Position numbers and translations under genes: made by a program
Notes under the pieces: model-generated
Database searches by the model: none
What the model was told of the DNA's origin: nothing
What the model saw: the letters and a program-made list of their open reading frames with translations, nothing else
Shown here: in pieces, positions 4,819 to 34,240 of the stretch
How positions within the stretch are numbered: position 1 is the first letter of the stretch
How the letters are laid out: each line of letters opens with the position of its first letter
Assembly: GCF_041248615.1 (NCBI RefSeq)
Contig: NZ_CP158426.1
Strand: one strand, 5' to 3'
DNA length: 64,000 nucleotides
Source of the DNA: Escherichia coli
Lineage (GTDB): Bacteria; Pseudomonadota; Gammaproteobacteria; Enterobacterales; Enterobacteriaceae

Positions 4819-4908
4819 TTACCTCGGTCTGTTACTGTTGAGGTAATGATTATGCGTATCTGGTTTGATGTCAATAGATATGAGTTAAAAAAATTACCCA
4901 TAAGGTAA
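4819..4908. promoter_or_regulatory. OL-like operator cluster: TTACC half-site at 4819, TTACTGTTGAGGTAA (4832-4846), TTACCCATAAGGTAA (4894-4908)
   Basis: TTACC-N5-GGTAA palindromes located between repressor gene 3' terminator and first leftward early gene. Confidence 0.55.
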
Positions 4909-4920
4909 TCTTGTTGGCAA

Positions 4921-4944
4921 TAAAAAAGCCGCCATAAGGCGGCT
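4921..4944 (-). terminator. Rho-independent terminator downstream of repressor gene
   Basis: Stem AGCCGCC/GGCGGCT, loop ATAA, A-run on plus strand = T-run on minus. Confidence 0.6.
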
Positions 4945-4965
4945 TACTTACTGAAAAATATGATT

Positions 4966-5550
4966 TTATTGTTTGTTTTTTTCGTTCTGGTTGATGACAA
5001 ATTCAATGTAACTTTCGATCTTTGCCTTCTCTGTTTCAGGTAACAATGCGTAGCGCGAGCGGTCATAGTTGATAGTTGCAGGGTCATGCGGATGAATCAG
5101 TAGTTCATATCCGTGACGCCCGAATGCAGATGCAACATTCTCCAGGGTGGAAATGGAAACGCTGACTTCATTGTTTAACAGGCGGCTTATTGTCACCTGG
5201 GCGACGCCGGATGCGCGGTGAAGTTTTCCCTGAGTTGAAAGGTCGCGGCTTTCACTCATCCAGCGTTCCAGGTTGTGAGCTGCCAGCTGACCAATGTCGC
5301 TTGGGCCGACAGGCTGAAAACCTTCCTGAGAAAGCGAGCGATCGATATCAAGCCAGTTACGGGGTTTATTGGCGGCAGCTTCAATTTTTCGCGCAACCTG
5401 GTCGCCGATAACCTTCTTGCCAAGAGCCCAGCGGTTTACCAGATTTGCCTGAGTTCCAAGTTTTTCTGCCATCCGCGTCTGAACACCATTGAATTCACGG
5501 TCGATCAAGTCGTTGAGATTTTGCCTGCGGACGTCCTGGATACTTTTCAT
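4966..5550 (-). CDS. CI-like prophage repressor with two HTH (XRE-type) domains, no S24 peptidase domain
   Basis: 194 aa; two HTH-like segments (res ~10-65 and ~100-150); divergent from Cro-like gene; operator clusters on both sides. Confidence 0.6.
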   Translation of the reverse strand: MKSIQDVRRQNLNDLIDREFNGVQTRMAEKLGTQANLVNRWALGKKVIGDQVARKIEAAANKPRNWLDIDRSLSQEGFQPVGPSDIGQLAAHNLERWMSESRDLSTQGKLHRASGVAQVTISRLLNNEVSVSISTLENVASAFGRHGYELLIHPHDPATINYDRSRYALLPETEKAKIESYIEFVINQNEKNKQ

Positions 5551-5605
5551 TTTCTGGAAAATCGCCTCATATATGAATCAGTAGATGATTCAATTTAAAG
5601 CAATA

Positions 5606-5668
5606 TTACCCAACAGGTAAATGCACCTCATAGGTAACTATCCTTGATTTTTGTTACCTTATGGGTGA
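5606..5668. promoter_or_regulatory. OR-like tripartite operator: TTACCCAACAGGTAA (5606-5620), GCACCTCATAGGTAA (5623-5637), TTACCTTATGGGTGA (5654-5668)
   Basis: Three 15-bp palindromic sites in the 154-bp gap between divergent repressor and Cro-like genes. Confidence 0.65.
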
Positions 5669-5679
5669 ATATTTATTAT
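5651..5679 (+). promoter_or_regulatory. Candidate pR: -35 TTGTTA (5651-5656), 17-bp spacer, -10 TATTAT (5674-5679)
   Basis: Sigma70-like hexamers with 17-bp spacing; third operator overlaps the spacer. Confidence 0.45.
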
Positions 5680-5704
5680 CTGAAATAAATATCAGGCAAT
5701 AGCT

Positions 5705-5935
5705 ATGAGCGATAACGGACATTTCGATTTCAAAAAGCACTGGCTTGCACTTACTCCGGATGAGCGTGAAGCCTTCGCACAGGAAGCCGGAACGACGAGT
5801 CACTATATCCAGACTCACTTAACAGGTAAGCGCAAAATGCCAGGTAAAGTATTGATGAATGGGCTTTTTAAAGCCTGTAAAACAAGACAATGGCTGCGCT
5901 CAAAAGCAGAACTGGCATACTTCTTCTACTCATGA
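5705..5935 (+). CDS. Cro-like small DNA-binding protein
   Basis: 76 aa, divergent from repressor, followed by terminator; HTH-like segment AFAQEAGTTSHYIQTHLTGKR. Confidence 0.5.
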   Translation: MSDNGHFDFKKHWLALTPDEREAFAQEAGTTSHYIQTHLTGKRKMPGKVLMNGLFKACKTRQWLRSKAELAYFFYS

Positions 5936-5956
5936 TATCCAGCCACAACCCTCTGT

Positions 5957-5980
5957 AGACCGCCACCCGGCGGTCTTTTC
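5957..5980 (+). terminator. Rho-independent terminator after cro-like gene
   Basis: Perfect 8-bp stem AGACCGCC/GGCGGTCT, loop ACCC, followed by TTTTC. Confidence 0.7.
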
Positions 5981-5990
5981 ATATCTATTC

Positions 5991-6005
5991 GTACCTCAAA
6001 GGTAA
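5991..6005. promoter_or_regulatory. Operator-like site GTACCTCAAAGGTAA downstream of cro terminator
   Basis: Imperfect TTACC-N5-GGTAA palindrome preceded by ATATCTATTCGTA, a 13-mer that recurs at 34241. Confidence 0.45.
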
Positions 6006-6085
6006 TAAAAAACCAAATCTGGTTGATCTTTTTTTTGTGTCAGCACAAAATGACCGTAATCCCAATACTAATAACAGGGCTTACC

Positions 6086-6286
6086 ATGGAAATCATTACA
6101 CGTATTGATGCCGCAAAGCGCGGACTTAAACGCTACTACACCGGAAAAACATGTAAGCACGGACATGACAGTGAACGCTGGGTTTACAACGGACACTGTG
6201 TTGAGTGCACCATGGAATCAAACCGTCGCATCAGGGCAGAGATTAAGCAGATCATGATTAATTCCTCCCCACAACATTCAAGCTGA
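6086..6286 (+). CDS. Small Cys/His-rich (zinc-ribbon-like) protein, possible regulator
   Basis: 66 aa from ATG 6086; CKHGH...CVEC motif; the longer track ORF from 6023 lacks an RBS. Confidence 0.4.
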   Translation: MEIITRIDAAKRGLKRYYTGKTCKHGHDSERWVYNGHCVECTMESNRRIRAEIKQIMINSSPQHSS

Positions 6287-6301
6287 TAGCGGAGATTAAT
6301 C

Positions 6302-7117
6302 ATGAGCAGACATGCAACAGATTGGGCCTGGGAGACAGATCCAGGTAGCTCGTCATTAAAGCTCATACTGCTCTCGATGGCTGACAGAGCCGATGAATAT
6401 AACCTCTGCTACCCCAGCATAGAACGCCTCGTTAAAGACACTTGCCTGAATAAAAAAACCGTGCAGGCCGGGCTTATATCGCTCATGAAAATGGGGCTTA
6501 TTTCAGATACCGGAGAGAGAAAGGGGGCGACGAAAAGAGTACGGGTTTTCTCTCTTAATATAACCAAAAACGGGAACATTAAAGGCAACCGGGAGGGGGG
6601 TAATGAACCCGAAAACGGTAATGTTACCGAAAACGGGAATATACCCAAAAACGGGATGTTGAATGATCCCAAAAACGGGATGTTGAATGATCCCAAAAAC
6701 GGGATCCAGAACCAGTCATATAACCAGTCATTTAACCAAGAGAGGGAGAGCAGGACAAAAAGCGGGGATTCTGTGCCTCATGACCCCGGCGCAAACAACG
6801 CCGTGATGAATAACTTTGTTCCTCCTGGTGGGCCAGGGCAATTAGGCAAATTTGTCATGCATGAACAATGGCAGCCATCAGATGACTTTCTTCGGAAAAG
6901 CTCATTGCAGGGGATCTACCTGGACAGTCTGCCAACGGCACAGGAACTTGCAGAGTTCAGAATTTACTGGATGGCTGAGGGTAAGGCATACCATCAGGCA
7001 CAGTGGGAGCAGAAGCTGGCAAGGCGGCTGCAGATTAGCAGACAGAAGCAATCAACATTACCTGATAACAACGTTCCGCACTGGAACAGCCCTGAAGCAT
7101 GGGAGGATTTCTTGTGA
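6302..7117 (+). CDS. Replication initiator (O-like) with N-terminal HTH and DnaT-like C-terminal domain; contains origin iterons
   Basis: C-terminus GKFVMHEQWQPSDDFL...EFRIYWMAEGKAYHQAQWEQKLARRLQI resembles E. coli DnaT C-terminus; iteron array inside gene. Confidence 0.7.
   Translation: MSRHATDWAWETDPGSSSLKLILLSMADRADEYNLCYPSIERLVKDTCLNKKTVQAGLISLMKMGLISDTGERKGATKRVRVFSLNITKNGNIKGNREGGNEPENGNVTENGNIPKNGMLNDPKNGMLNDPKNGIQNQSYNQSFNQERESRTKSGDSVPHDPGANNAVMNNFVPPGGPGQLGKFVMHEQWQPSDDFLRKSSLQGIYLDSLPTAQELAEFRIYWMAEGKAYHQAQWEQKLARRLQISRQKQSTLPDNNVPHWNSPEAWEDFL
6564..6707. repeat. Iteron array (6 direct repeats CC(A/G)AAAACGG(G/T)A..., including a perfect 24-bp tandem duplicate 6644-6667 / 6668-6691); probable phage origin of replication
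   Basis: Direct repeats read in sequence inside the O-like gene, analogous to lambda ori within O. Confidence 0.6.
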
Positions 7118-7899
7118 ACAACGTTTTTACCGCGATACAAAACCGTGACGGAGAAGCCCTTTCTCGCATGTCAGGTTATGAGCATCAGTACGTCAACAAT
7201 GACAATGTGGTGAACATGTCAGCAGAGAGGCTTGTTGATGCCCTTTTTAAACAGCTGAAACAACTGTTTCCGGCGGCAGTGGTAACCAACCTGAAGACGC
7301 CAGAGCAGGAAGTTGCTGCAAAACAGCAGTGGATTGCTGCGTTTGCCGAAGGGGGGATCCGAACCCGTGAACAGGTTTCTGCTGGTATGCGCCACGCCCG
7401 CGCCAGTGAATCTCCGTTCTGGCCGTCTCCAGGGCAATTTATCAAGTGGTGCAAAGACAGCAAGATGGTTCTTGGCGTCACCATTGACGATGTGATGGCG
7501 GAGTTTCACCGGTACAGCAAGGAAAAAAGTTTATATCCTGGTGGTCCCGAAAGATTCCCGTGGCGACATCCGGTTATGTACTGGGTCGTATGTGATACCC
7601 GCCGTGCAATGTATCAGCGCCAGCTTAGCGAGATTGAGGTTGAGAAACACGCGCGCAGGCTGCTCGATGATTGGGCGAAAAAGGTGGCTTCCGGACAGCA
7701 GATACCCGATCCGGTGATCAGCATACAGGCAAAGCCAGAACCCATGAGTACACCTCCGGACACAGGGAGAGACGTTTACCATCCACCAGGGCGAAGTTTC
7801 GGGTGCATGCCTAACGCCGCCACCCTTGGGGGAATAACACCGGCGCAGTGGCTGATGGAGGAATACAGGCGGGGAAAGGCGGCAGGATTTATCAAGTAA
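7099..7899 (+). CDS. Replication protein P-like helicase loader
   Basis: Segment QQWIAAFAEGGIRTREQVSAGMRHARASESPFWPSPGQFIKWC aligns with lambda P (RRQWVLAFRENGITTMEQVNAGMRVARRQNRPFLPSPGQFVAWC); true start may be slightly downstream of 7099. Confidence 0.75.
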   Translation: MGGFLVNNVFTAIQNRDGEALSRMSGYEHQYVNNDNVVNMSAERLVDALFKQLKQLFPAAVVTNLKTPEQEVAAKQQWIAAFAEGGIRTREQVSAGMRHARASESPFWPSPGQFIKWCKDSKMVLGVTIDDVMAEFHRYSKEKSLYPGGPERFPWRHPVMYWVVCDTRRAMYQRQLSEIEVEKHARRLLDDWAKKVASGQQIPDPVISIQAKPEPMSTPPDTGRDVYHPPGRSFGCMPNAATLGGITPAQWLMEEYRRGKAAGFIK

Positions 7900-7936
7900 T
7901 ACCAGCGCGATAGCGCATTTTTTTACGCCTCGACAA

Positions 7937-8013
7937 TTACCTGTTAGGTAATAAAATATTCTAAAATCTATTGATTTCGTGTCTTATGTGGTTTTTAATT
8001 ACCTCAGAGGTAA
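7937..8013. promoter_or_regulatory. Two operator-like palindromes TTACCTGTTAGGTAA (7937-7951) and TTACCTCAGAGGTAA (7999-8013) flanking TTATGTGGTT motif
   Basis: Perfect TTACC-N5-GGTAA sites in gap between P-like gene and next gene; second site ends 3 bp before ATG 8017. Confidence 0.5.
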
Positions 8014-8016
8014 ATC

Positions 8017-8370
8017 ATGAGAAAACAGATACAGGCTCTTGGTCGACTCAAAACAGGTCAGATGAACAAAACAGAATCTGCGTATTGCCAGCACCTTGAG
8101 CTGCGTAAACGTGCAGGAGAAATCGTCTGGTATCGATTTGAGGGTATCAAGCTGCGGTTAGCTGACAACTGCTTCCTGACTGTAGATTTTGCCGTGATGT
8201 TGGCTGACGGGCAGTTGGTGATGGTGGACGTTAAGGGAAGTAAGTCAGTCTTTACTGACGATGCGAGAGTCAAGATGAAGGTTGCGGCAGACAGCTATCC
8301 GTTTGTCTTTCAGGTTGCTTATCCAAAACCTAAAAAGCTCGGTGGTGGATGGGAGGTTGAGGAACTATGA
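8017..8370 (+). CDS. Hypothetical protein, DUF1064-like, possible PD-(D/E)XK nuclease fold
   Basis: 117 aa; D...VDVKG motif; family assignment from memory only. Confidence 0.45.
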   Translation: MRKQIQALGRLKTGQMNKTESAYCQHLELRKRAGEIVWYRFEGIKLRLADNCFLTVDFAVMLADGQLVMVDVKGSKSVFTDDARVKMKVAADSYPFVFQVAYPKPKKLGGGWEVEEL

Positions 8371-8975
8371 GCGAGAAGCCCAATGCTGCGGGATTGATTG
8401 TATCCGGTGATAAAAACCCGAATTGGAAGGGTGGGAAAATCGAAAAGGTTTGTTCCGTATGTGGCAGGCAATATCAGGTTAAGCGAGCCAACTCATCTTC
8501 AAGGTTCTGCTCACTTCAGTGTGTAGGAATTTCACAGCGAGGCAAGACGGTAAATCGGGAACTAAAGCGAGTATTAAAAATATGCTGCGTATGCGGATCT
8601 TCGTTCTCCGTTTTCTTGAGTCATGAGAAGCGTCATAAATGCTGCTCGAAACAGTGTTCCAACATAATGCGTTCTTCTCTGATGAAGGGGGAAGGAAATC
8701 CAAACTGGTCTGGTGGATTATCGAGATTGCCGTATCCGTGGGATTTCCGAGAAACGAGCAAGAGGGTTATTGAGCGAGATGGTTTTACTTGTCAGAACCC
8801 AGGTTGTGATGGAACAGACAAAAGGCTAACAACTCATCACATCAATTACGACAAGCAAGACTGTCGTCAGGAGAACCTTATTTGCCTTTGTTCGAGCTGT
8901 AACTCGAAGGCTAATTTCGGTCGGCATAAGTGGCAAAAGTTTTATGAATCACTGATGAAAAATAGATCGGCATGA
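8367..8975 (+). CDS. HNH endonuclease with two N-terminal zinc-ribbon-like modules
   Basis: 202 aa; C-terminal HHINYDKQDCRQENLICLCSSCNSKAN (HNH motif); two CxxC...C..C clusters. Confidence 0.7.
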   Translation: MSEKPNAAGLIVSGDKNPNWKGGKIEKVCSVCGRQYQVKRANSSSRFCSLQCVGISQRGKTVNRELKRVLKICCVCGSSFSVFLSHEKRHKCCSKQCSNIMRSSLMKGEGNPNWSGGLSRLPYPWDFRETSKRVIERDGFTCQNPGCDGTDKRLTTHHINYDKQDCRQENLICLCSSCNSKANFGRHKWQKFYESLMKNRSA

Positions 8976-9036
8976 ATCGACGATCTTTTTAGTTATCAAT
9001 GTAATCAATAAGTTATGCGGATAAGCGAGGGTAAAG

Positions 9037-9618
9037 ATGGAAAGTAATATCAAAGGGTTAGTTGCCGCCGGGCATGAGATGGCTTCGGAACTGAAAGCAG
9101 AATGTGGTGCCGTTGATATGCGTAGTGTGGCAAAGCTGATCAGCGATTTGGCAACGCAACTGGAAGTGCAACTGGTGCGTGCTAATGCGCTGGCCGAAGA
9201 CCAACAGAAAGCGATTGAGTCAATTAAGCAGGCTGATTCGGCTGTTAAGTTGGCACACGAGAAGTTTTCGGCGCTGGCAGCGGAGAATGCAAAGCTGAAG
9301 AAGTTCTGCAAAGACGCTGCATTCGATGCCGATTACGAAGCAGAGCTAGGTATGGAGAGAGGTGGATTCAGTGATGCGCTTAACGAAATCAAAACCCCAG
9401 CCACCGATGCTTTCCTGGCTGAAGTGCGGGCGCAGGGCGTGGATGCTGCTATAGAAGCTGCAAAAAATCTGGTGGCCCAAGAATATGAGTATAAGGATTT
9501 CAAAGCGGCGCAGAGTGATTGCTGTATGCACCCTGGTTCAGACCTGGTAGGGAAGGTTGAAATAACTGAGTGGTTAGTTGACTTTGCTGCCCAGCTTCGC
9601 AAAGGAGGCAACCAGTGA
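9037..9618 (+). CDS. Hypothetical coiled-coil protein
   Basis: 193 aa, alanine/glutamate-rich heptad-like stretch; no motif recognised. Confidence 0.45.
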   Translation: MESNIKGLVAAGHEMASELKAECGAVDMRSVAKLISDLATQLEVQLVRANALAEDQQKAIESIKQADSAVKLAHEKFSALAAENAKLKKFCKDAAFDADYEAELGMERGGFSDALNEIKTPATDAFLAEVRAQGVDAAIEAAKNLVAQEYEYKDFKAAQSDCCMHPGSDLVGKVEITEWLVDFAAQLRKGGNQ

Positions 9619-11688: not shown

Positions 11689-12019
11689 ATCAGCAGCAGA
11701 GCGCAAAGCCGCTCAGAGAGCCAGACAAGCTGCATCTGGTGTGCGTAAGCTGGAGATTGTGCTTGATGCTCAGGAAATTGAAATGCTGGAGCGTAACTGC
11801 GCCGCCCGGCGCCCTGGTCGAGATCCCTATGAAATGGCCGAGTACATCGCGCTGCTGATCCGCCAGGATGATGCCCGGGTGCGCGGGCGTATAAAATCGA
11901 TCAGCAGAAAACGTTGCGGTAAGTGCGGCGAGAGAGTTCCAGTTAATTCATGCCCGTGCAATGGTGACTCGCAATGCTGGGTGACTAAAGGCTGGCATGA
12001 AACGAAATTAATAGTGTGA
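11678..12019 (+). CDS. Hypothetical protein with C-terminal Cys cluster (CGKCG...CPCNGDSQC); candidate regulator
   Basis: 113 aa; stop codon TGA lies inside palindrome GTGACATGTCAC; last gene before packaging module. Confidence 0.45.
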   Translation: MMAKSAAERKAAQRARQAASGVRKLEIVLDAQEIEMLERNCAARRPGRDPYEMAEYIALLIRQDDARVRGRIKSISRKRCGKCGERVPVNSCPCNGDSQCWVTKGWHETKLIV

Positions 12020-12027
12020 CATGTCAC
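12016..12027. repeat. 12-bp perfect palindrome GTGACATGTCAC (copy 1 of 3)
   Basis: Exact palindrome read in sequence; overlaps stop of upstream gene; terminator 41 bp downstream. Confidence 0.9.
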
Positions 12028-12068: not shown

Positions 12069-12094
12069 GCCGCCAACTATGGCGGCTTTATTTT
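12069..12094 (+). terminator. Rho-independent terminator between early/middle genes and packaging module
   Basis: Stem GCCGCCA/TGGCGGC, loop ACTA, followed by TTTATTTT. Confidence 0.7.
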
Positions 12095-12105: not shown

Positions 12106-12120
12106 TTACCACAACGGTAA
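12106..12120. promoter_or_regulatory. Operator-like palindrome TTACCACAACGGTAA upstream of terS (weaker second site 12124-12138)
   Basis: Perfect half-sites, 18 bp upstream of terS ATG. Confidence 0.5.
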
Positions 12121-12137
12121 CTATTACCACGGTGGTT

Positions 12138-12734
12138 ATGATGCCTGCTGAACCTAAAACCTATAAACGCAAATCAACGCAATTTAAGCCACTAACAGCA
12201 ATGCAGGAGGCTTATTGCCAGTCATACATCAAAACGCCTGAAAACCAGACTCAGGCAGCGATTAACGCAGGATTCTCCCCAAATACAGCGGCAGTTAAAG
12301 CCAGTGTCATGATGCGCGATGAACGCATTCAAAAACGGATTGCCGAGTTGATGGAGGAGCGCAACAAACGAATGCGCGTCAGTGCTGATTACGTTCTCAT
12401 GCGCCTGGTGGAGATCGACCAGATGGACGTGATCGATATCCTCAACGACGATGGGAGCCTTAAACCAATCCGTGAGTGGCCGAAAATCTGGCGCACTACG
12501 CTTAGTGGCTTTGATCTGTCATCGACCATCATGAACATGAACGAGGATTCGATAGAGACAATCCTCAAAAAAATTAAATGGCCTGACAAGGTGAAGAACC
12601 TCGAACTGATTGGTAAGCACGTCGACGTCAACGCATTCAAAGAACGCCTGGATGTTAATGTGAATGTGACAATTGCTGATCGCATAGCGGCAGCCAGGAA
12701 GAGACTGAAAGAACGTCAGGATGGCAATCAGTGA
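12138..12734 (+). CDS. Terminase small subunit
   Basis: LTAMQEAYCQSY...QTQAAINAGFSPNTAAVKAS...RIQKRIAEL resembles small-terminase family signature; track start 12060 lies inside terminator hairpin and is rejected. Confidence 0.75.
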   Translation: MMPAEPKTYKRKSTQFKPLTAMQEAYCQSYIKTPENQTQAAINAGFSPNTAAVKASVMMRDERIQKRIAELMEERNKRMRVSADYVLMRLVEIDQMDVIDILNDDGSLKPIREWPKIWRTTLSGFDLSSTIMNMNEDSIETILKKIKWPDKVKNLELIGKHVDVNAFKERLDVNVNVTIADRIAAARKRLKERQDGNQ

Positions 12735-14280: not shown

Positions 14281-14292
14281 GTGACATGTCAC
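14281..14292. repeat. 12-bp palindrome GTGACATGTCAC (copy 2 of 3)
   Basis: Exact; 4 bp past stop of minus-strand gene 14297..14653 and directly followed (minus orientation) by hairpin AGCCAGC/GCTGGCT plus T-run. Confidence 0.9.
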
Positions 14293-14852: not shown

Positions 14853-14929
14853 TGGCGTGGCATGCAGGATTCGAACCTGCGACCAACCGCTTAGAAGGCG
14901 GTTGCTCTGTCCGACTGAGCTAATGCCAC
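14853..14929 (-). tRNA. tRNA-Arg (anticodon UCU), phage-encoded
   Basis: 77 nt; reverse complement GTGGCATTAGCTCAGTCGGACAGAGCAACCGCCTTCTAAGCGGTTGGTCGCAGGTTCGAATCCTGCATGCCACGCCA; 7-bp acceptor stem, T-loop GGTTCGAATCC, anticodon loop CTTCTAA, encoded CCA; close to E. coli argU in layout. Confidence 0.85.
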
Positions 14930-15251: not shown

Positions 15252-15266
15252 TTACCTGAAAGGTAA
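15252..15266. promoter_or_regulatory. Operator-like palindrome TTACCTGAAAGGTAA upstream of head gene cluster, followed by ATATGTGGTT-N5-GGTAAT (15309-15329)
   Basis: Perfect TTACC-N5-GGTAA; downstream motif shared with tailspike upstream region. Confidence 0.5.
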
Positions 15267-15356
15267 TAATTTGTGCGTTAAATGTCAACTGTCTACGATA
15301 AATAAATCATATGTGGTTAAATTGGTAATAATTTAATTGCGTACGGAGTCATTGAT

Positions 15357-24543: not shown

Positions 24544-27056
24544 TGCCAGTCGTACCAACAGTATCCGGACGTCAGGTTGAGAGCCGTGGAGTTCAGTCAG
24601 CAGGCTTGCAGACGTTTTCTCAGCCAGGTATTGGTGATGCTTTTGTTCGGGCAGGGGCAGAGGCTATTGATGTTTTTGGTCAGGCAAAACAGCGTGCCAA
24701 TATCGCTCTGGCTCAGGAGGCATCTCTTAACCTCAGTCAGATAAGCAGCGATCTGCTGAATAACCCTGAAACAGGTTTGCTTAACCTGAAAGGGAAAAAT
24801 GCTATTGGAAAAGGTCAGGAGTATACGCAGCAGTTTGATGCTCGGGCCGAACAACTGGCTATGTCGCTGCCGGATGAACAGGCTCGTAATGCTTTCATGC
24901 AGCAGGCGCAGCAGCAGCGCATTCAGTTCACTACGCAGGCAGGGCGGCACGAGATAGGGCAAATAAATGCCTACGAAGAAGGCCAGTTTCAGGCTACGCT
25001 GCTGAACAATGGTAAAAATGCCGCAGCATTGTATGGCGACAACGCCGCATACGTATTGGCTAATAAGCAAACTTTCCAGCAAATTGAGGATTACGGCATT
25101 GCACATGGCTGGAGTGACGAGCAAATCCAGGCCAAGAAAATCGAGTTTAAAGAGAAGGTTGCTGATGCCGCATTGTCCCAGTGGTCGGCAAACAATGCGA
25201 CCGCATTCATCCAAAGTAATGGCGAGTTAAGTGATACTGCTGCTGGAGCTCGCCGTGCTGTAGCAGATAGTGACTCTTCCGAGCGTGCCCGTGGCATACG
25301 CAACAATAACCCAGGAAATCTCGAATACAGCAAAACTAATCCGTGGGTAGGCCAGACCGGTGATGATGGTCGATTTGCTAAATTCGAAACACCTGAACAC
25401 GGGATTCGTGCATTAGGGCGGAACCTGATGTCGTATCAGAGGCAGGGTATTGATACCGTCAGCGAGATAATTAATCGCTGGGCACCGCCTACTGATAAAA
25501 ATGACACTATGTCGTATATCAAAGCAGTGTGCGAACAACTTGGCGTTTCTGCTGATGAGCCTCTCGATGCATCTAATCCTGATACCCTGAAGGCGCTTTG
25601 TGCAGCCATTATCCATCATGAGAACGGTAGCCAGCCATACAGTGATCAGCAGTTAACTGCTGGTGTCAGTGCAGCACTTGGTTTATCAACAATTCCAACC
25701 AACACCAAACGCTATACCGGTAATGCAGCATTCGATGCGGCATCTCCTGAGGCGCAGGCAAGTTTTATGCGACAGGCGGATCAACTGCGTCGGCAGCAGC
25801 AGGCTGAATATAAAACGATGATTGACAGCCAGGTTCGCGATGCGACAGCTGCGTATATGCGTGGCGTTGAATTTCCTAACCCACCTGGTGAGGCTGATTT
25901 TATTGCAGCTTATGGAGTAAGAGAAGGAAACCTGCGATATACCGAGTTCAGAAATACGCAAATCGCCGGACAGTATATAGGCTCTTTCCGCAACATGCCG
26001 ACAAGCAGCATTACAGCATATGTTGAGCAATTACGCCCGGATACTGGTGAGACAGGGGAGGGTTATGCGGCACGAGCCGCTCTTTATGACAACGTTGTGT
26101 CGGCTGCAAGTCAGGTGATAAAGCAGCGACAGGCTGATCCTGTACAGTTCTCTCTTGCCGCCGGACAGGCAAAGCCTATCGACATGAGCAATAAGGATAA
26201 CTTTGGACAGAGCGTTGCCTTGCGTGCTGCTCAGGTCAGTGACCTTGCTAAGTCATATGGCACTCCACTGACGTTCTTTTCCAAAGACGAGGCCAATCAG
26301 ATCGGTGTTTTCTTTCGTGATGCGCCCGTTTCCCAACAGGCAGCATATCTCGATACCATCAGGCAGAGCACTGGTGGTGGGCAGGTGTATATGTCAGCAC
26401 TACAGCAGATCAGTGCCAACGCTCCATCTGCTGCCGTTGCCGGGATACTGATGGATAAGCCAGGTGGTATTTTGGCAGAAAAAAACTGGTTTAATCCGGA
26501 TGTTTCCGTGTCTCCTGAAACCGCTGCGCAGACAATTCTTGCTGGCGCGGCGGCTCGTAAAGGTACTGATGATGCGAAAGGTATTCCGATGCCTAAAGAT
26601 GCTGATCTTCGCCTTGAGTTTTCTGACATGGTGAAGGATGCATTTGCTGGTGACGCTCAGGGGGCATCAATGGCATACGAGATCGCAAAGGATTATTACG
26701 CTGGTGTGATGGCGAAAAAAGGCGTGGTATCAGGCGAAATTGACAATGATGTCTGGAAACAGGCTGTTAACGTAGCTACAGGTGGCGTGCATGACTATAA
26801 CGGAATGGGGAATGTCCTTTTGCCGTGGGGAATGTCTGCAGAGCAATTCGATAAGCAGGTTAATCAGGTTTGGAATGAACAAGTTGTCGGCTCCGGGATA
26901 AAAACACCGCCTGGTCAGTATGGTTTGCAAAGTTACGGCGATAGTCAGTATCTGGTGAAACTTGGTACTGGTTATCTGCTGAAAGATGATGGTTCTCCCG
27001 TTGTTCTTAATCTGACACAGAAGCGTCAGAGATTCTCCGGAGATATTCCGCAATGA
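24543..27056 (+). CDS. Large internal virion / ejection protein, possible cell-wall hydrolase region
   Basis: ATG 24543 overlaps upstream stop (track start 24468 rejected); conserved GIRNNNPGNLEY segment. Confidence 0.5.
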   Translation: MPVVPTVSGRQVESRGVQSAGLQTFSQPGIGDAFVRAGAEAIDVFGQAKQRANIALAQEASLNLSQISSDLLNNPETGLLNLKGKNAIGKGQEYTQQFDARAEQLAMSLPDEQARNAFMQQAQQQRIQFTTQAGRHEIGQINAYEEGQFQATLLNNGKNAAALYGDNAAYVLANKQTFQQIEDYGIAHGWSDEQIQAKKIEFKEKVADAALSQWSANNATAFIQSNGELSDTAAGARRAVADSDSSERARGIRNNNPGNLEYSKTNPWVGQTGDDGRFAKFETPEHGIRALGRNLMSYQRQGIDTVSEIINRWAPPTDKNDTMSYIKAVCEQLGVSADEPLDASNPDTLKALCAAIIHHENGSQPYSDQQLTAGVSAALGLSTIPTNTKRYTGNAAFDAASPEAQASFMRQADQLRRQQQAEYKTMIDSQVRDATAAYMRGVEFPNPPGEADFIAAYGVREGNLRYTEFRNTQIAGQYIGSFRNMPTSSITAYVEQLRPDTGETGEGYAARAALYDNVVSAASQVIKQRQADPVQFSLAAGQAKPIDMSNKDNFGQSVALRAAQVSDLAKSYGTPLTFFSKDEANQIGVFFRDAPVSQQAAYLDTIRQSTGGGQVYMSALQQISANAPSAAVAGILMDKPGGILAEKNWFNPDVSVSPETAAQTILAGAAARKGTDDAKGIPMPKDADLRLEFSDMVKDAFAGDAQGASMAYEIAKDYYAGVMAKKGVVSGEIDNDVWKQAVNVATGGVHDYNGMGNVLLPWGMSAEQFDKQVNQVWNEQVVGSGIKTPPGQYGLQSYGDSQYLVKLGTGYLLKDDGSPVVLNLTQKRQRFSGDIPQ

Positions 27057-28855: not shown

Positions 28856-28860
28856 ATTAA

Positions 28861-31335
28861 ATGAGACAGGAATGTATACAAGCGGTCCAGCAGGCGGCGC
28901 AGCGCACGTTAACGGCGCGAGAAATACAGAACATTGAAGACCGCATTTATCGAAATATGCGCTCCATTGCTCGTGATGACCCGATGTCGTGGAGACAACT
29001 TTCCGAATCAGAGCGGCTATATCGTGCAGCACAATTGGCATCTGAGGAATTACAGCGAGAAGCGGCATTAAAGAAACGTCGTGTGGCCCTCACTATAGCC
29101 GCACGTCAGAGATTGGATAAATTTATCAATAGCTATCAAGGGGCTGATGGGAAACTTGGCGCTCTTAACCGTACTATTGCTTTTAATGCAGACGGTAAAT
29201 CGAATTTCCTCTCTGTTGAGTCCAGAACAAAAGCCACTCGTGATTATGCATTGAGTCAATTGCAGGAGGCATTCGAAGCAGTTGATCCTCGCTTTTTTGG
29301 TCTGTTTGAAGATGAAGCGGGCGTACGTGACCTGGTATATGAAATGCGAGGGCAAAATACTGGCAATTCTAAAGCAAGAAAAGGTGCTAAGGCGTGGAGA
29401 GAAGTGACAGATCTACTGCGCCGCCGGTTTAATGATGCTGGTGGGGACATTGGCTATCTCGAAAACTGGGGGATCCCTCAGCATCATTCTATGGAAAAGG
29501 TTGGGGCGGTATCAAAGGATAAGTGGGTTAGCGATGTTATAGGTAAGCTGGATCGCAAATATTATATCCGAGCCGATGGACAACTGATGAACGATGCCGA
29601 GTTGTCTGCATTTCTTGGAGAGGCTTATAACACGATCGCTACTGGTGGGCTGAATAAGCTTACTGATACCGGAATGCGAATTTCCGGCGCACGTGCTAAC
29701 CGTGGTAATGCATCACGACAGATACATTTCAAAGATGCAGATTCCTATCTGCAATATCAGCAACTTTATGGCGATCGCTCTCTATGGGAAATCATGGTCG
29801 GTCACCTGGAAGGTATCAGTAAAGATATTGCACTGGTGGAAACATATGGCCCAAACCCCGATCATGTTTTCCGCTCTCTTCTTGATCAGGTGAAGGCAGA
29901 AACGGCAACAGCTAACCCGAGTAAAACCGGTAAAGTCGAGCGGCTGGCGAACAACACAGAGAATCTGTACAACTTTATTTCCGGAAAGACACAGCCTGTA
30001 GCGAATCCGCACATCGCGCGATGGTCTGACAATATCCGCAACTGGCTGGTTGCCAGCAGACTCGGATCTGCGTTGCTATCATCGTTCTCTGATCTTGGAA
30101 CCATGTATCTGTCTGCGAAGGTGACCAACCTTCCAATGAACCAGTTATTCCGCAACCAGCTTGAAGCTATGGACCCAACGAACCGTACAGAACTTGCGCG
30201 GGCGCGCCGCGCTGGTCTGGCGATGGAATCTCTACTTGGCAGCGTTAACCGCTGGGCGATGGATAATATGGGGCCGTCAGTGTCTCGTTGGGCGGCAACG
30301 GCGGTAATGCGTGCCAGTGGGCTTACAGCATGGTCAGATGCGCACAAGCGCGCCTATGGCGTAACCATGATGGGAAGCCTGGGAGAAGTAGTGTCACGGA
30401 CACCAGACCTTCGTAGCCTCGATGATTCTGATTTTCGTATCCTGAAAAGCAAAGGGATTACTGACACAGACTGGAGCGTATGGAAGCTGGCGCAACAGGA
30501 GGACTGGGGGAACGGTAATAATACGATGCTGACACCGGAAAGCATTATGCGTATCCCTGATTCAGCAGTTAAACATCTTGGTGAGCCTGAGCGCGTGAAA
30601 TTTGAGGCAATGCGTAAATTGCTAGGTGCCGTAACTGAAGAAGTTGATATGGCTGTTATTACACCGGGAGCTCGTGAGCAACTGATAACCGGTTCTGGTA
30701 TTCAGCGTGGAACATGGAAAGGTGAATTAACGAGAAGTGTTTTCCTGTTTAAATCTTTCCCTATCTCGGTTGTTATGCGTCACTGGTCACGCGCTATGGG
30801 TATGCCGTCTGCTGGTGGGCGTGCGGCATATATTGCGACGTTTATTGCCAGTACGACCATTCTTGGCGCTTTGTCGCAGCAACTTAACGACCTTGCGTCT
30901 GGTCGTAATCCTCGAGAGATGACAGGAGAAGATGCCGCAAAATTCTGGCTTGGTGCTCTACTGAAAGGTGGTGGTCTTGGCCTTTACGGTGACTTTTTAT
31001 TGTCAGATCACACCAGGTACGGAAGCGGCGCGCTGGCGTCGATGCTTGGCCCGGTAGCTGGTCTGGTTGATGACGTGGTGAAGATTGCTCAGGGCATACC
31101 GTTAAATGCTGTGGAAGGGAAGAGTGAGCAGACTGGTGGTGATCTGGTGAAGCTGGGGAAAGGTTTGATGCCTGGTGCGAATCTCTGGTATTTGAAGGCG
31201 GCTCTCGATCACATGATCTTTAACCAGATGCAGGAGTATTTTTCACCAGGCTATTTGCGTAAAATGGAGCAACGTTCGAAGAAAGAGTTTAACCAGACAT
31301 ACTGGTGGCGACCTCAGGATGTCACTCCGCAATAA
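28861..31335 (+). CDS. Large internal virion / ejection protein
   Basis: 824 aa, third of three consecutive large genes before tailspike. Confidence 0.5.
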   Translation: MRQECIQAVQQAAQRTLTAREIQNIEDRIYRNMRSIARDDPMSWRQLSESERLYRAAQLASEELQREAALKKRRVALTIAARQRLDKFINSYQGADGKLGALNRTIAFNADGKSNFLSVESRTKATRDYALSQLQEAFEAVDPRFFGLFEDEAGVRDLVYEMRGQNTGNSKARKGAKAWREVTDLLRRRFNDAGGDIGYLENWGIPQHHSMEKVGAVSKDKWVSDVIGKLDRKYYIRADGQLMNDAELSAFLGEAYNTIATGGLNKLTDTGMRISGARANRGNASRQIHFKDADSYLQYQQLYGDRSLWEIMVGHLEGISKDIALVETYGPNPDHVFRSLLDQVKAETATANPSKTGKVERLANNTENLYNFISGKTQPVANPHIARWSDNIRNWLVASRLGSALLSSFSDLGTMYLSAKVTNLPMNQLFRNQLEAMDPTNRTELARARRAGLAMESLLGSVNRWAMDNMGPSVSRWAATAVMRASGLTAWSDAHKRAYGVTMMGSLGEVVSRTPDLRSLDDSDFRILKSKGITDTDWSVWKLAQQEDWGNGNNTMLTPESIMRIPDSAVKHLGEPERVKFEAMRKLLGAVTEEVDMAVITPGAREQLITGSGIQRGTWKGELTRSVFLFKSFPISVVMRHWSRAMGMPSAGGRAAYIATFIASTTILGALSQQLNDLASGRNPREMTGEDAAKFWLGALLKGGGLGLYGDFLLSDHTRYGSGALASMLGPVAGLVDDVVKIAQGIPLNAVEGKSEQTGGDLVKLGKGLMPGANLWYLKAALDHMIFNQMQEYFSPGYLRKMEQRSKKEFNQTYWWRPQDVTPQ

Positions 31336-31344
31336 GGAAGTGTT

Positions 31345-31518
31345 GTGTTTTTAATTATTTTGAGTGTAATAATTTCTGGTGGATTGTTATTTATTGACCA
31401 CTACAAATATTTTCTTAACCCTCAGACTCAAGCTATTTGCTGGTTCATCTTTGTTGTGCAGGGAGTAGTTCTTGTTGCAAGCCTTATTGAGGGGAGGCCT
31501 CTTATTTTTACTGGGTAA
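31345..31518 (+). CDS. Possible small hydrophobic protein (57 aa)
   Basis: GTG 31345 with SD AAGGA 5 nt upstream; hydrophobic translation; below track threshold. Confidence 0.3.
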   Translation: MFLIILSVIISGGLLFIDHYKYFLNPQTQAICWFIFVVQGVVLVASLIEGRPLIFTG

Positions 31519-31530
31519 ATAGGTGACTAC

Positions 31531-31827
31531 ATGCAAGCTATAGGATTCATTGTTTATATCGTCGTTGGTCTTTTTCAGTTGGCAGCAATTATGGCTGGGC
31601 TTGAATCATGGTGGGGATTGCACTGGATAATTGCAGCCCCCATCGCTTTCATCGTGAGCTATATTCCATTTGTTGGAGCGATTGTTGGTATGGTTGGCGC
31701 TGTGGATGTATGGCGGTGGGAGTGGTGGCAGGCTGGCCTTCTATTCTTTGGTGGGATAATCTTTGCTATTGTCTGCGGTGGAATGTCATCATTTTTCGAA
31801 TGGCTATCATTCAGAAAAGAGACGTGA
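31531..31827 (+). CDS. Small integral membrane protein (3 predicted TM helices)
   Basis: 98 aa, highly hydrophobic; stop TGA lies inside GTGACATGTCAC. Confidence 0.5.
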   Translation: MQAIGFIVYIVVGLFQLAAIMAGLESWWGLHWIIAAPIAFIVSYIPFVGAIVGMVGAVDVWRWEWWQAGLLFFGGIIFAIVCGGMSSFFEWLSFRKET

Positions 31828-31835
31828 CATGTCAC
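31824..31835. repeat. 12-bp palindrome GTGACATGTCAC (copy 3 of 3)
   Basis: Exact; overlaps stop codon of membrane protein gene; terminator hairpin starts at next base. Confidence 0.9.
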
Positions 31836-31860
31836 AGGCCGCTTTCGCGGCCTTGTTTTT
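31836..31860 (+). terminator. Rho-independent terminator
   Basis: Stem AGGCCGC/GCGGCCT, loop TTTC, followed by TGTTTTT. Confidence 0.7.
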
Positions 31861-32020
31861 AACGAATGCCACCGCCGCCCGGGCGGGAATCCGCAGAACG
31901 CCCACCGCAGCGGGAGCCGTCAGCGGCAGTATCGCTGTCGTGCTGACAACGGCCGGCAAAGGCCTGAGTTGAAGCTACCAGAGACAACAAAACGAACAGT
32001 GCAGCAAATGCTTTTTTCAT
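31859..32020 (-). CDS. Possible small secreted protein (signal peptide), start at internal Met
   Basis: MKKAFAALFVLLSLVASTQAFA signal-like N-terminus; weak RBS. Confidence 0.3.
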   Translation of the reverse strand: MKKAFAALFVLLSLVASTQAFAGRCQHDSDTAADGSRCGGRSADSRPGGGGIR

Positions 32021-32094
32021 TGTGAAAAATTTCCATCTATAAGCCACCTCAATGTGGCGTCAATGAGTGTAGCACTGACTTTTGTTTCGTCCAC

Positions 32095-32117
32095 AAAAAA
32101 GCCCGCAGCGCGGGCTT
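32095..32117 (-). terminator. Rho-independent terminator of AT-rich moron gene
   Basis: Stem GCCCGC/GCGGGC with A6 on plus strand; overlaps stop codon. Confidence 0.65.
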
Positions 32118-32655
32118 ACCAAAACTTGTACCACGGGGATTTATCCTTCAATGGACAATCCTTCCATCGTGTGGCCAACCATTCATATTCTTTAAAATAT
32201 GTGTTTATGTTTTCTTTTTCTCTAATGGCTTGTATAAGAGGTAGCGCAATCTGATAGTTATTTACAACGGAGCTGTAAAATACTTCCTTAATCATGGTCT
32301 CATCATAAGTTTTCCGCTTCACGCTCACAGCCATGCGTTCGTAGAAACCTAGACAGTAAATTATTTCTCTCTTCTCTGTCTTTTCTTCATCCGTAAGATC
32401 AGCCTGCCCATTGCTTGGATACATATAAGAGCGGAATGATTTGTTCGATTCGTGAATGCGGCGCATAGTAGATAGGCCTTTCTTATAATCTACATCAAAC
32501 CTGCTTTCACCAAGGAATACTGAAGTGTGTACTTTTCTCGCTGTATTTACATTATAAATAATAGTAGCGATAGCTATGAACAAGCCAAGCGAAACCGCGA
32601 CTGCACTTACGATTTGAGCCACAGCCATGGCAAATTGCATTTCTTCACTTAACAC
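32116..32655 (-). CDS. AT-rich moron: membrane-anchored protein (N-terminal TM helix plus ~140-aa cytoplasmic domain); candidate superinfection-exclusion / abortive-infection factor
   Basis: 179 aa; GC visibly lower than flanking phage DNA; own GTG start with GGAGA SD, own terminator; lies in a position analogous to P22 sieA (between ejection genes and ant). Confidence 0.55.
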   Translation of the reverse strand: MLSEEMQFAMAVAQIVSAVAVSLGLFIAIATIIYNVNTARKVHTSVFLGESRFDVDYKKGLSTMRRIHESNKSFRSYMYPSNGQADLTDEEKTEKREIIYCLGFYERMAVSVKRKTYDETMIKEVFYSSVVNNYQIALPLIQAIREKENINTYFKEYEWLATRWKDCPLKDKSPWYKFW

Positions 32656-32784
32656 AAACTGTCTCCAGACATGAAAACGGGGCCTAATGGCCCCGTCATT
32701 AAACTATCCGAATGTTAAACGCCTTCGTACTCGTCAAATTTTCTCATGTGGGCTCCTCCTGTATCGGTGCCTAATCGCTATGGA

Positions 32785-32799
32785 TCACCCGTGAGGTAA
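32785..32799. promoter_or_regulatory. Operator-like palindrome TCACCCGTGAGGTAA
   Basis: TTACC-N5-GGTAA variant in gap between moron and ant genes. Confidence 0.4.
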
Positions 32800-32865
32800 T
32801 AGTAAGCTATTCACCTGCAATCTGTACAGAATTATTTAAAGGCACATCCCTGTGCCGCCGCCCCG

Positions 32866-33576
32866 TCAGAAGAACCCTGCCTTGTCGTTGATGTATTCCG
32901 CGTGAGTCTGGATATCACGCAGGCATTTGCTCACACCGACGATGTAGCAAAACATGGTGGTCAGCTCCGCCGCCGCGCCCGATACGTCGTGCCCGTCGTC
33001 CTGTAACTGGTTCAGCAGATTCATCAGCAGTGAGTTCTCCGTCAGGCCGAGAACACCAGACGGAGAATGAATCAGACTGCGGTAGCCGGGCTTCAGTGGG
33101 GCGCTGTAGGTTTTGTTCTCTATCTTCATTGCCTGCATCACTGCTGATGCTGTGGCGTTGGCTACCTGGTCGGCAACCATCTTTATGCGTTCTTCCTGCG
33201 GGAGCGAGTTTTTAATGTAACTTCCGGTGCGGCGGATCTGAGGAAGAACCTCACCTGTAACCCATTTACGAAAGCGGTAGGGGATAGTGCCTGGTGTCAC
33301 CGCATCGCGGCAGCGGAGGATCAGTGTGTAGAGGCCTGACTCGGAGATGATGTTGATCTCTTTTACTCGGCTGTCAAAAATCGCACGATGTTCATGCCCT
33401 ATGTTGAACATAGACCTTTCATCATCATCCAGTTTTTCAAGTGATTGGGTGACGTTTTGGATACGCAGCGCACTACAAACGTCTTGGGCTACAAACCATG
33501 GTTGGCCATCGATAATGATGGAACGGATAGGGTTAACAGATTCAAATTTGAAGATGGCAGTTTGAGCATTAGCCAT
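32866..33576 (-). CDS. Antirepressor (Bro-N domain plus C-terminal Ant-type domain)
   Basis: N-terminus FKFESVNPIRSIIIDGQPWFVAQDVCSAL...ISESGLYTLILR...VLPQIRRTGSY is a Bro-N signature; ATG 33576 has GGAG SD (track GTG start 33591 rejected). Confidence 0.7.
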   Translation of the reverse strand: MANAQTAIFKFESVNPIRSIIIDGQPWFVAQDVCSALRIQNVTQSLEKLDDDERSMFNIGHEHRAIFDSRVKEINIISESGLYTLILRCRDAVTPGTIPYRFRKWVTGEVLPQIRRTGSYIKNSLPQEERIKMVADQVANATASAVMQAMKIENKTYSAPLKPGYRSLIHSPSGVLGLTENSLLMNLLNQLQDDGHDVSGAAAELTTMFCYIVGVSKCLRDIQTHAEYINDKAGFF

Positions 33577-33594
33577 GGTGGTTATCTCCACTTA

Positions 33595-33608
33595 GTGATT
33601 TTAATCAC
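33595..33608. promoter_or_regulatory. Near-perfect 14-bp palindrome GTGATTTTAATCAC overlapping ant ribosome-binding region
   Basis: Read in sequence; 6/7 half-site symmetry; directly upstream of ant SD. Confidence 0.4.
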
Positions 33609-33731
33609 CACCGCAACGCCAATTACTGGTGGTGAACTGGACAAGGTTGGCGTACCGGCCTAAGTGGTACCGGCGTCCTTTCGGACCCCTGCCCAGCCCA
33701 CCATAATTCGGATATAGCTGTGCTTAACGCA

Positions 33732-33755
33732 TAAAAAAACCACGTCTGGCGTGGT
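33732..33755 (-). terminator. Rho-independent terminator downstream of small antirepressor-domain gene
   Basis: Stem ACCACG/CGTGGT with A7 run on plus strand. Confidence 0.6.
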
Positions 33756-33845
33756 ATGCGCCACTTAGTAACTCGGGACGCCAATCCCGGCACTGGATTT
33801 TGCCAGTGCCAGATTACTATGGCACAAGAGGAGTGCGATGTAAAT

Positions 33846-33860
33846 TTACCGCAAAGGTAA
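33846..33860. promoter_or_regulatory. Operator-like palindrome TTACCGCAAAGGTAA
   Basis: Perfect half-sites, 32 bp beyond the 3' end of gene 33892..34149. Confidence 0.45.
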
Positions 33861-33891
33861 ATATAAGCACTCCAGTTGGTAATTGCAAACC

Positions 33892-34149
33892 TTATCTGGT
33901 TTGTTTTCGTAATTGTTCGGCACAATAGTCGAGATGTGTTTGCAGATCCCGCATAGACATCTGTGAGCTGGTGACGTAGTTAATCAGTGCAGTCAGTTCG
34001 GCAAGTGGGCCATCGACATTAAATCCATCCTTATCGAGATCCCGGAGTAATTTCATCAAGTGCGATCCCTCCACCAGTGACCTGACGCCTCCCGGCGTGT
34101 GAATCCTTTCGGTAAATCCGTCTTCCAGTGGATAGTGATACTGCTGCAT
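33892..34149 (-). CDS. Small stand-alone antirepressor-domain protein (85 aa), LexA-box controlled
   Basis: ATG 34149 with SD GGAGAAG; sequence aligns with C-terminal ~65 aa of the Bro-N antirepressor (IH-P-GV...LM-LL..L..DG..V.G..AELT...YV...RD-QTH..Y); LexA box 22 bp upstream. Confidence 0.5.
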   Translation of the reverse strand: MQQYHYPLEDGFTERIHTPGGVRSLVEGSHLMKLLRDLDKDGFNVDGPLAELTALINYVTSSQMSMRDLQTHLDYCAEQLRKQTR

Positions 34150-34168
34150 CTTATCTTCTCCATGCAAT

Positions 34169-34188
34169 AACTGTATATTTATACAGTA
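34169..34188. promoter_or_regulatory. LexA (SOS) box AACTGTATATTTATACAGTA
   Basis: CTGT-N8-ACAG with AT-rich spacer, near consensus TACTGTATATATATACAGTA; immediately upstream of small antirepressor gene. Confidence 0.7.
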
Positions 34189-34225
34189 GCAAATAATTTG
34201 TTTGCTATCCAGCACGTTTTGCAAA

Positions 34226-34240
34226 TCACCTGAAAGGTAA
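34226..34240. promoter_or_regulatory. Operator-like palindrome TCACCTGAAAGGTAA in divergent region upstream of tailspike; followed by ATATGTGGTT-N5-GGTAAT (34271-34291)
   Basis: TTACC-N5-GGTAA variant; shares ATATCTATTCGTA 13-mer with site at 5981. Confidence 0.45.

Follow-up and report, generated by a model that had tools for sequence, protein, structure and literature searches.

Dispersed TTACC-N5-GGTAA palindromes as probable repressor operators throughout a phiV10-type prophage of Escherichia coli

Introduction

Which protein reads a palindrome that marks the early control region of a prophage and recurs in front of its packaging, head and tail genes, and what does it do at these distant places? 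The question is raised by a 64-kb stretch of the Escherichia coli NRZ14408 chromosome (referred to here as the window), which carries all but the left end of a prophage of 39,609 bp adjoining guaA. In this prophage the 15-bp palindrome TTACC-N5-GGTAA is present at the leftward and rightward early operator regions (OL and OR), on either side of the repressor gene rep, and again at the boundaries of most of the other modules. The reading that best accounts for this pattern, to which a probability of roughly three in four can be attached, is that the palindromes are a set of operators for the master repressor Rep which head nearly every transcription unit of the prophage, so that each is silenced directly.

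The prophage region matches Escherichia phage phiV10 at about 97% identity, and the prophage is a phiV10/epsilon15-type podovirus of the genus Uetakevirus, with a repressor/antirepressor (Rep/Ant) switch of the kind known from phage SPC32H. A preliminary description of the window, made from the sequence, had treated it as a lambdoid phage and had argued from the premise that repressors of such phages bind only OL and OR. The lambdoid assignment is dropped here, and the premise applies to lambda and not to the Uetakevirus group.

Distribution of the palindrome

The exact palindrome occurs seven times in the window, as compared with 0.02 copies expected from shuffled sequences, and 16 times when one mismatch is allowed (1.09 expected per 64 kb from shuffles). 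Thirteen of these 16 copies fall within positions 4832-34240, and three one-mismatch copies are in the host part of the window, inside pdeF, arsC and focB. Across the prophage (39.6 kb) there are seven exact copies and 14 with at most one mismatch, or about 15 sites when a two-mismatch copy at 5623 is counted; the flanking host DNA, over 84.4 kb, has no exact copy and six with one mismatch (Fisher p = 3e-4; binomial p = 5e-4). When all palindromes of the form 5-Nx-5 are counted without bias, TTACC-N5-GGTAA ranks first in the prophage, and the host part of the window holds no 5-Nx-5 palindrome comparable in count. The preliminary description had placed every copy inside the prophage, and the motif indeed reaches no comparable density in the 84.4 kb of host DNA.

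According to the annotation of the Prokaryotic Genome Annotation Pipeline (PGAP), 13 of the 15 prophage sites are intergenic, with intergenic sequence making up 10.5% of the prophage (P = 1.5e-11). The other two, at 12106 and 12124, lie inside a 5′ extension of the annotated terS gene, which starts at TTG 12060 in the PGAP and phiV10 records and, in epsilon15 and SPC32H, at an ATG aligned with window position 12141. The extension is doubtful because it includes a terminator hairpin (12069-12086) and because the epsilon15 and SPC32H genes start at the aligned ATG; the annotated 5′ end is probably over-extended, with ATG 12141 the probable true start. Copies with two mismatches, considered as extra operators, number 23 in coding sequence versus one in intergenic sequence, and were rejected as noise; only the intergenic one, 5623 at OR, is credible.

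The sites are perfect or near-perfect palindromes and hence without orientation. As read from the sequence, the centres of the half-sites are 10 bp apart, the distance expected for a dimer of helix-turn-helix (HTH) proteins. When 72 exact sites from eight genomes are pooled, the motif is flanked by A and T and has an A/T-rich centre, which extends the unit to ATTACC-N5-GGTAAT. The sites, none of which is assigned to a strand, are as follows.

4832..4846, OL proximal operator: one mismatch; its first base is the last base of the -10 element of a leftward promoter, TTGACA-17-AATCAT
4894..4908, OL distal operator: exact; 62 bp upstream of the 4832 site of the leftward promoter
5606..5620, OR operator nearest rep: exact
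5623..5637, middle operator of OR: GCACC..GGTAA, two mismatches; the copy has two mismatches throughout the phiV10 lineage and is perfect in the epsilon15 lineage
5654..5668, OR operator nearest cro: one mismatch; in the spacer of the rightward promoter, which has a conserved TTGATT -35 element
5991..6005, operator after cro: one mismatch; directly past a terminator (5957-5976) and overlapped by a 13-mer (5981-5993)
7937..7951, operator after the replication genes: exact; fills the spacer of TCGACA-16-TAAAAT, past a conserved terminator
7999..8013, second post-replication operator: exact; 62 bp downstream of 7937 and including the Shine-Dalgarno sequence of the next gene (..GAGGTAAatcATG)
12106..12120, operator before terS: exact; between the terminator 12069-12086 and terS
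12124..12138, adjoining terS operator: one mismatch; 18 bp after 12106 and overlapping the ribosome-binding site (RBS) of the probable terS start
15252..15266, operator before the portal/head operon: exact; a conserved island amid diverged sequence
32785..32799, operator between the Bro-N::Ant gene and the DUF4760 gene: one mismatch
33846..33860, operator at the isrK/C4-ant module: exact; abuts the -35 element of the module promoter
34226..34240, operator between the divergent ant and tailspike promoters: one mismatch
L009 9811-9825 (190 bp left of the window start), int-upstream copy TTACCTTAAAGGTAT: one mismatch; between attL and int

All 13 copies listed in the preliminary description, seven exact, five with one mismatch and one with two (5623), are found at the coordinates given there, as is the arrangement of two sites at OL and three at OR with recurrence at module boundaries; the copy at 12124 and the int-upstream copy outside the window had been missed. 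The int-upstream copy is kept with its flanks in all relatives and overlaps features labelled as integrase and RNase III sites in the epsilon15 record. It may be a Rep operator for int or part of attP.

The preliminary description had further drawn attention to a 13-mer, ATATCTATTCGTA, that accompanies two of the sites. The element is real, with two exact copies (5981-5993 and 34240-34252) where 0.07 would be expected; the second starts at 34240 and not, as stated earlier, at 34241. The first copy runs into the 5991 site from the left, the second into the 34226 site from the right. At the 5981 locus the 13-mer is kept in phages Tyrion and phiV10, and at the tailspike locus it is specific to the phiV10 lineage, the phiV10 copy having one mismatch. 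As a general companion element of the sites it was rejected, the tailspike copy being limited to that lineage in a region not conserved across the genus.

Repressor, Cro-like protein and antirepressor

The components of the switch that would act on these sites are encoded next to them.

4966..5550, minus strand: rep, the master repressor, with an N-terminal HTH; a full-length homolog of SPC32H Rep
5705..5935, plus strand: Cro-like small HTH regulator (phrog_35), divergent from rep
33892..34149, minus strand: small antirepressor gene ant, 86% identity to SPC32H Ant
34171..34186, no strand: LexA box CTGTATATTTATACAG at the ant promoter; invariant

The repressor is 100% identical to phiV10 Rep and only 42% identical overall to the Reps of Salmonella phages. 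It matches SPC32H Rep (PDB 5D50) with E = 4e-42 over residues 1-190, and its C-terminal part corresponds to the crystallised fragment 92-198 of that protein. Its PHROG and NCBIfam matches are to HTH families only, with neither an S24 self-cleavage domain nor a match to the C1 family among them. As summarised in the secondary literature, SPC32H Rep binds palindromic sites as a tetramer in which the DNA-binding dimers are formed across dimers, the tetramerisation domain resembles those of DNA-looping proteins, and a tetrameric Ant disassembles the Rep tetramer. The small ant gene of the prophage, with its LexA box, is divergent from the tailspike gene.

Among six aligned Uetakevirus Reps the N-terminal helix NLVNRW..G.K.G..AR.IE is invariant, while identity in the rest of the protein falls to 42%. 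The Cro-like proteins of six aligned phages of the genus are 58-84% identical, with an invariant HTH (AGTTSHYIQ.HLT), and to judge from these sequences the Cro-like protein probably binds the same operators as Rep. Co-variation between Ant and the C-terminal part of Rep, considered as a basis of immunity types, was rejected, as Ant is 82-86% identical where the Reps are 42% identical. One more regulator gene (phrog_536), which is conserved and has no Pfam or NCBIfam family match, stands at the end of the early-right operon just before terS.

Conservation in related phages

Seven other complete genomes were scanned for the palindrome (phiV10, epsilon15, Tyrion, SPN1S, BUCT554, BUCT711 and PAT1), and SPC32H was added to the alignments and the spacing count; the hosts of these relatives belong to Escherichia, Salmonella, Enterobacter and Klebsiella. 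Each of the seven has 8-11 exact copies at homologous loci, and there are about 15 sites per genome, here and in the relatives. All told, nine further genomes or loci, including two uncultured contigs, have the palindrome at matching positions. The shared loci are OL, OR, the positions after cro and after the replication genes, those before terS and the head genes, and those before the antirepressor modules, the tailspike gene and int. In intergenic alignments the palindrome forms an invariant island within diverged sequence, and at the tailspike and head loci the islands stay sharp even where both flanks are homologous. The conservation of the sites in related phages, which the preliminary description had named as a check, is borne out.

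Part of this map has been annotated before. The epsilon15 record (NC_004775.2) contains seven protein_bind features labelled "repressor / lysogeny" with the sequence ATTACC-N5-GGTAAT, three at OL, one after the replication genes, and one upstream of each of terS, the head genes and the tail fibre gene. Neither the phiV10 record nor the PGAP record of the NRZ14408 genome annotates any of the sites.

The motif also persists where the repressor has diverged. At two loci with a Rep 52-55% identical and altered helix residues, TTACC-N5-GGTAA is the top palindrome found de novo, at the same places, and operator specificity appears, from these comparisons, to be fixed across the family. At least 317 contigs in IMG/VR encode a relative of Rep, the best 80 of them identical.

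Promoters, terminators and spacing

Hexamers resembling promoter elements overlap or adjoin the sites at 4832, 5654, 7937, 15252 and 33846, and the sites after cro and before terS come directly past terminators. A spacing of 62 bp between sites recurs 15 times across the eight genomes.

At the late loci a second conserved element is encountered, with the consensus CATAT(G/A)(T/A)GGTT-N5-(G/T)GTA.., which stands 3′ of the palindrome and ends in GGTAAT, that is in an operator half-site, at the head and tailspike loci. Two copies are in the window.

15308..15329, plus strand: late-promoter-like box CATATGTGGTT-N5-GGTAAT, with its half-operator centred 62 bp from the 15252 site
34270..34291, plus strand: late-promoter-like box ahead of the tailspike gene, TCCATA-17-TAGAAT; its spacer holds a GGTAA half-site 50 bp from the 34226 site

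The -35 element of the late box is TTCATA in most relatives and TCCATA in the window, followed after 17 nt by TAGAAT at the tailspike gene. The box reads as a weak sigma70-type promoter and may be activator-dependent, which is suspected because the -35 element is poor. The box is also seen at 24739 in phiV10 (L001) and at 24751 in epsilon15 (L002), and relatives have a further version before the lysis cassette, 53 bp from a full site. In the lysis-gene region of the window (about 37273) the copy of the late box has diverged, and the O-antigen acetylase gene of phiV10 is absent there.

Proposed mechanism of repression

On the sequence evidence we infer that Rep binds the TTACC-N5-GGTAA palindrome, that the late-region copies repress transcription, and that Rep bridges the pairs of sites 62 bp apart. 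One or two operators would head the leftward early promoter (PL), the divergent rightward and repressor promoters (PR/PRM), the points after the terminators of cro and of the replication genes where transcription restarts, terS, the head operon, the two antirepressor modules, the tailspike gene and int, as well as the lysis cassette in relatives. During lysogeny all of these operators would be filled by Rep, each unit being held off on its own. On DNA damage LexA would let go of ant, and Ant would then dismantle the Rep tetramer, freeing all units together. Where an operator near the promoter has a second one 62 bp away, or about six helical turns, the two could be bridged by a tetramer with its two DNA-binding dimers.

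Several lines of evidence support Rep as the protein concerned. Three copies of the motif separate the divergently transcribed rep and cro, and two more mark the leftward early promoter; Rep is a full-length homolog of a tetrameric, palindrome-binding repressor that is disassembled by Ant; and the prophage has a small ant gene whose LexA box is invariant. The epsilon15 record labels seven homologous sites as repressor-binding, and the 72 exact sites in eight genomes stand at homologous loci as invariant islands, while the N-terminal helix of Rep and the HTH of the Cro-like protein are invariant and the rest of Rep diverges. To these can be added the intergenic enrichment, the lack of exact copies in the host DNA covered, the 62-bp spacing and the promoter-like hexamers at the sites. 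Direct repressor control of the late modules, which the preliminary description had suggested, is thus the best reading, and it agrees with the "repressor / lysogeny" annotations before terS, head and tail fibre genes of epsilon15.

Other observations weigh against it. The link between Rep and the motif is drawn from position and annotation, and Rep and motif show no covariation: the motif is invariant across the family, and homologs down to 52% identity keep TTACC-N5-GGTAA. A consensus scan finds no convincing promoter at 32785, 5991 or 12106/12124; the promoter calls at the other sites are consensus matches only, and their overall number is not above the expectation from shuffles. In front of the head, tailspike and lysis genes the best promoter-like element does not carry the full operator, which stands about 50-75 bp further upstream. 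Finally, the site before the lysis cassette, which the relatives carry, has been lost from this prophage.

A more specific version of the Rep operator reading, which is possible but decidedly tentative, holds that Rep tetramers lock each unit by means of short loops, in which a strong operator would be joined at a fixed distance to a second operator or to a half-operator embedded in a promoter. The distances concerned are 62 bp for OL, the post-replication pair and the head operon, and 50-53 bp for the tailspike and lysis promoters.

Alternative explanations

The palindromes in the late region might be used by a different protein, either the Cro-like protein in the lytic cycle or some late regulator, for instance the phrog_536 protein, with Rep acting at OL and OR only. 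The Cro-like protein is highly conserved and its HTH invariant, a conserved regulator of no known family is encoded at the end of the early-right operon, and the late loci have the second conserved box, CATATGTGGTT-N5-GGTAAT, which shares the GGTAAT half-site and has an activator-dependent look. However, the late palindromes are indistinguishable from the copies at OL and OR, so that a protein which binds the one should bind the others, and the annotators of epsilon15 gave the sites to the repressor. Sharing of operators by Cro would in any case be compatible with their use by Rep, and the exclusion of Rep from the late region is on balance unlikely. Of the second regulator that the preliminary description had allowed for, what is plausible is only the Cro-like protein, probably using the same operators.

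In true stoperators, as known from Cluster A mycobacteriophages, repressor bound inside transcription units halts the elongating RNA polymerase. The sites of the prophage are likewise spread genome-wide in short intergenic gaps, those at 5991, 7937/7999, 12106/12124 and 32785 lie within series of genes that run in the same direction, and two sites overlap RBSs and not obvious promoters. Stoperators, however, are asymmetric 13-mers oriented with transcription and bound by a monomer, whereas the sites here are symmetric and the homolog of their presumed repressor is a tetramer; promoter-like hexamers also flank several of them. Moreover, most of the same-direction sites come directly past rho-independent terminators, and since these terminators already limit read-through, a promoter at which transcription restarts is a simpler reading than a stoperator. 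A role as true stoperators is quite improbable, and the sites are best read, on sequence grounds, as ordinary promoter-associated operators. The term "stoperator-like", used in the preliminary description, is apt for the dispersal of the sites and misleading as to their nature, given their symmetry, the sigma70-like hexamers near most of them and the tetrameric state of the repressor homolog.

It has also to be considered that the late copies are linkers at module junctions which promote the exchange of modules and have little regulatory role. The 7999 site with its RBS (7999-8016) precedes a DUF1064 gene in some phages and a RuvC-type resolvase gene in others, and at 33846 the centre is inverted and the left flank departs from that of phiV10, which would fit a junction within the site. 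Use as a junction is nevertheless compatible with operator function, the sharp islands persist where both flanks are homologous, and neither the fixed 62-bp spacing nor the association with promoters is expected of mere linkers, which makes a role confined to module exchange very unlikely.

That the palindromes act as RNA hairpins, whether as processing sites or as translational operators, is scarcely credible: although the 7999 and 12124 sites overlap Shine-Dalgarno sequences and some of the intergenic regions concerned carry RNase III sites in the epsilon15 record, a copy situated in a promoter spacer, as several are, would not be transcribed from that promoter, and hairpins were rejected as the main explanation on account of their weak predicted stability (-1.1 to -6.8 kcal/mol) and the absence of compensatory changes among the 72 pooled sites, whose arms are conserved as sequence.

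Comparison with known systems

The closest counterpart of the Rep operator set is that of epsilon15 and SPC32H, which belong to the same genus and have the same half-sites at the same loci (OL, terS, head, tail fibre and post-replication), together with a homologous Rep, a small Ant and a LexA box. The phiV10 lineage differs from epsilon15 by an added site after cro and by two sites around an isrK/C4-ant module that epsilon15 lacks, and the site before the lysis cassette that relatives keep is missing from this prophage. Dispersed Rep sites are thus already known from the epsilon15 annotation, and the present finding extends that annotation and is no new principle. As far as the sources covered show, what is new is that the annotation now extends to the phiV10 lineage, that sites pair at 62 bp as a rule, that late-promoter boxes contain half-operators, and that a P1-like C4-ant module has a Rep site.

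Outside the genus, the C1 operators of phage P1 are the closest analogue, in that one master repressor serves many dispersed operators and is inactivated by an antirepressor rather than by cleavage. P1 has 22 asymmetric 17-bp C1 operators (consensus ATTGCTCTAATAAATTT), which govern replication, the regulator of the late genes and the antirepressor operon, and the antisense RNA c4 precedes its ant gene. C1 is, however, unrelated to Rep, and the approximately 15 sites of the prophage are symmetric, 15-17 bp long, and, unlike those of P1, also placed directly before structural and packaging operons.

The stoperators of Cluster A phages (L5 gp71 type) resemble the present sites in being sites of the immunity repressor in short intergenic gaps throughout the genome, including the late region. 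They number more than 20, are asymmetric and orientation-dependent and block elongation, and the repressor that binds them is a monomer having two DNA-binding domains; the sites described here, by contrast, number about 15, are symmetric and associated with promoters, and would be bound by a repressor whose homolog is tetrameric, a state taken from SPC32H. Lambda CI and Cro share with the prophage the divergent repressor and cro genes flanking a three-part OR and the multi-site OL, and cooperative or looped binding to paired operators is plausible here too. Unlike in lambda, no S24 domain was found in Rep, induction would proceed via Ant, and there are 10 further sites beyond OL and OR. Homologs of Q and N were not noticed, though no search aimed at them was made.

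A second antirepressor module

The resemblance to P1 includes the module at the 33846 site, in which two small RNAs form the leader (33625..33809) of a second antirepressor gene.

33733-33809, minus strand: isrK-type small RNA (Rfam; 67/66 bits for the isrK/C4 pair)
33625-33708, minus strand: C4 antisense RNA (Rfam)
32866..33576, minus strand: Bro-N::Ant fusion antirepressor gene, downstream of the isrK and C4 RNAs

RNAs of the isrK type belong to an Hfq-binding class. The promoter-like sequence of the module, TTTACA-17-CATAGT, is preceded by TG and has its predicted start exactly at the 5′ end of the Rfam isrK match. Relative to phiV10, the Rep site that abuts its -35 element has the central 5 bp inverted and a different left flank. 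The isrK/C4 pair and the extra site are also present in phiV10 and Tyrion, and neither is found in epsilon15. Together isrK, C4 and the Bro-N::Ant gene give this podovirus prophage a second antirepressor module laid out like the immI operon of P1, where ant is under the control of a primary-repressor operator and the c4 RNA; with C4 and isrK upstream of the Bro-N::Ant gene and a Rep site at the promoter, the likeness is a functional analogy only.

Other features of the prophage

39252..39268, plus strand: attR core ATTGAGTGGGAATGATT, the published att core, at the right prophage end
14856-14929, minus strand: phage-borne tRNA, annotated as tRNA-Arg in the host record; situated past terL and ahead of the head operon, in opposite orientation to the late genes
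6599-6738: three adjoining short tandem arrays in the DnaT-like replication gene
12016-12027, 14281-14292 and 31824-31835: three copies of a second perfect palindrome, GTGACATGTCAC

The left att core is located 340 bp before the window start. The arrays in the DnaT-like gene have periods of 18 (3.1 copies), 24 (2.6 copies, 100% identity) and 12 (2.4 copies), and in their sequence they look like the iterons of an origin.

The second palindrome is kept at homologous places, in two to three copies each, in all seven relatives, always at operon ends beside rho-independent terminators. One position is on the stop codon with which the last early-right gene ends, another comes directly past terL, and the third is shortly ahead of the structural operon's closing terminator. 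A termination or antitermination factor, or else a late regulator, may act at this palindrome.

Implications

Guarding of the prophage module by module by Rep, which is probable, would explain how a 40-kb prophage can be kept silent without a lambda-like cascade. The operator map predicts which promoters fire on induction by Ant, the 62-bp pairing is a testable prediction of how the unusual SPC32H-type tetramer engages DNA, and the set of operator, repressor and antirepressor is compact and portable. Should the units in fact be locked by loops, late genes would be silenced by short DNA loops and not only through the absence of an early activator, and Ant, by breaking the tetramer, would open all of the loops at once. 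About 15 co-dependent sites would in that case have frozen operator specificity across the family, including among Reps 42-55% identical, and immunity in the group could therefore not diversify through operator recognition. Prophages of this type are very common in E. coli and include O157-converting phages such as phiV10.

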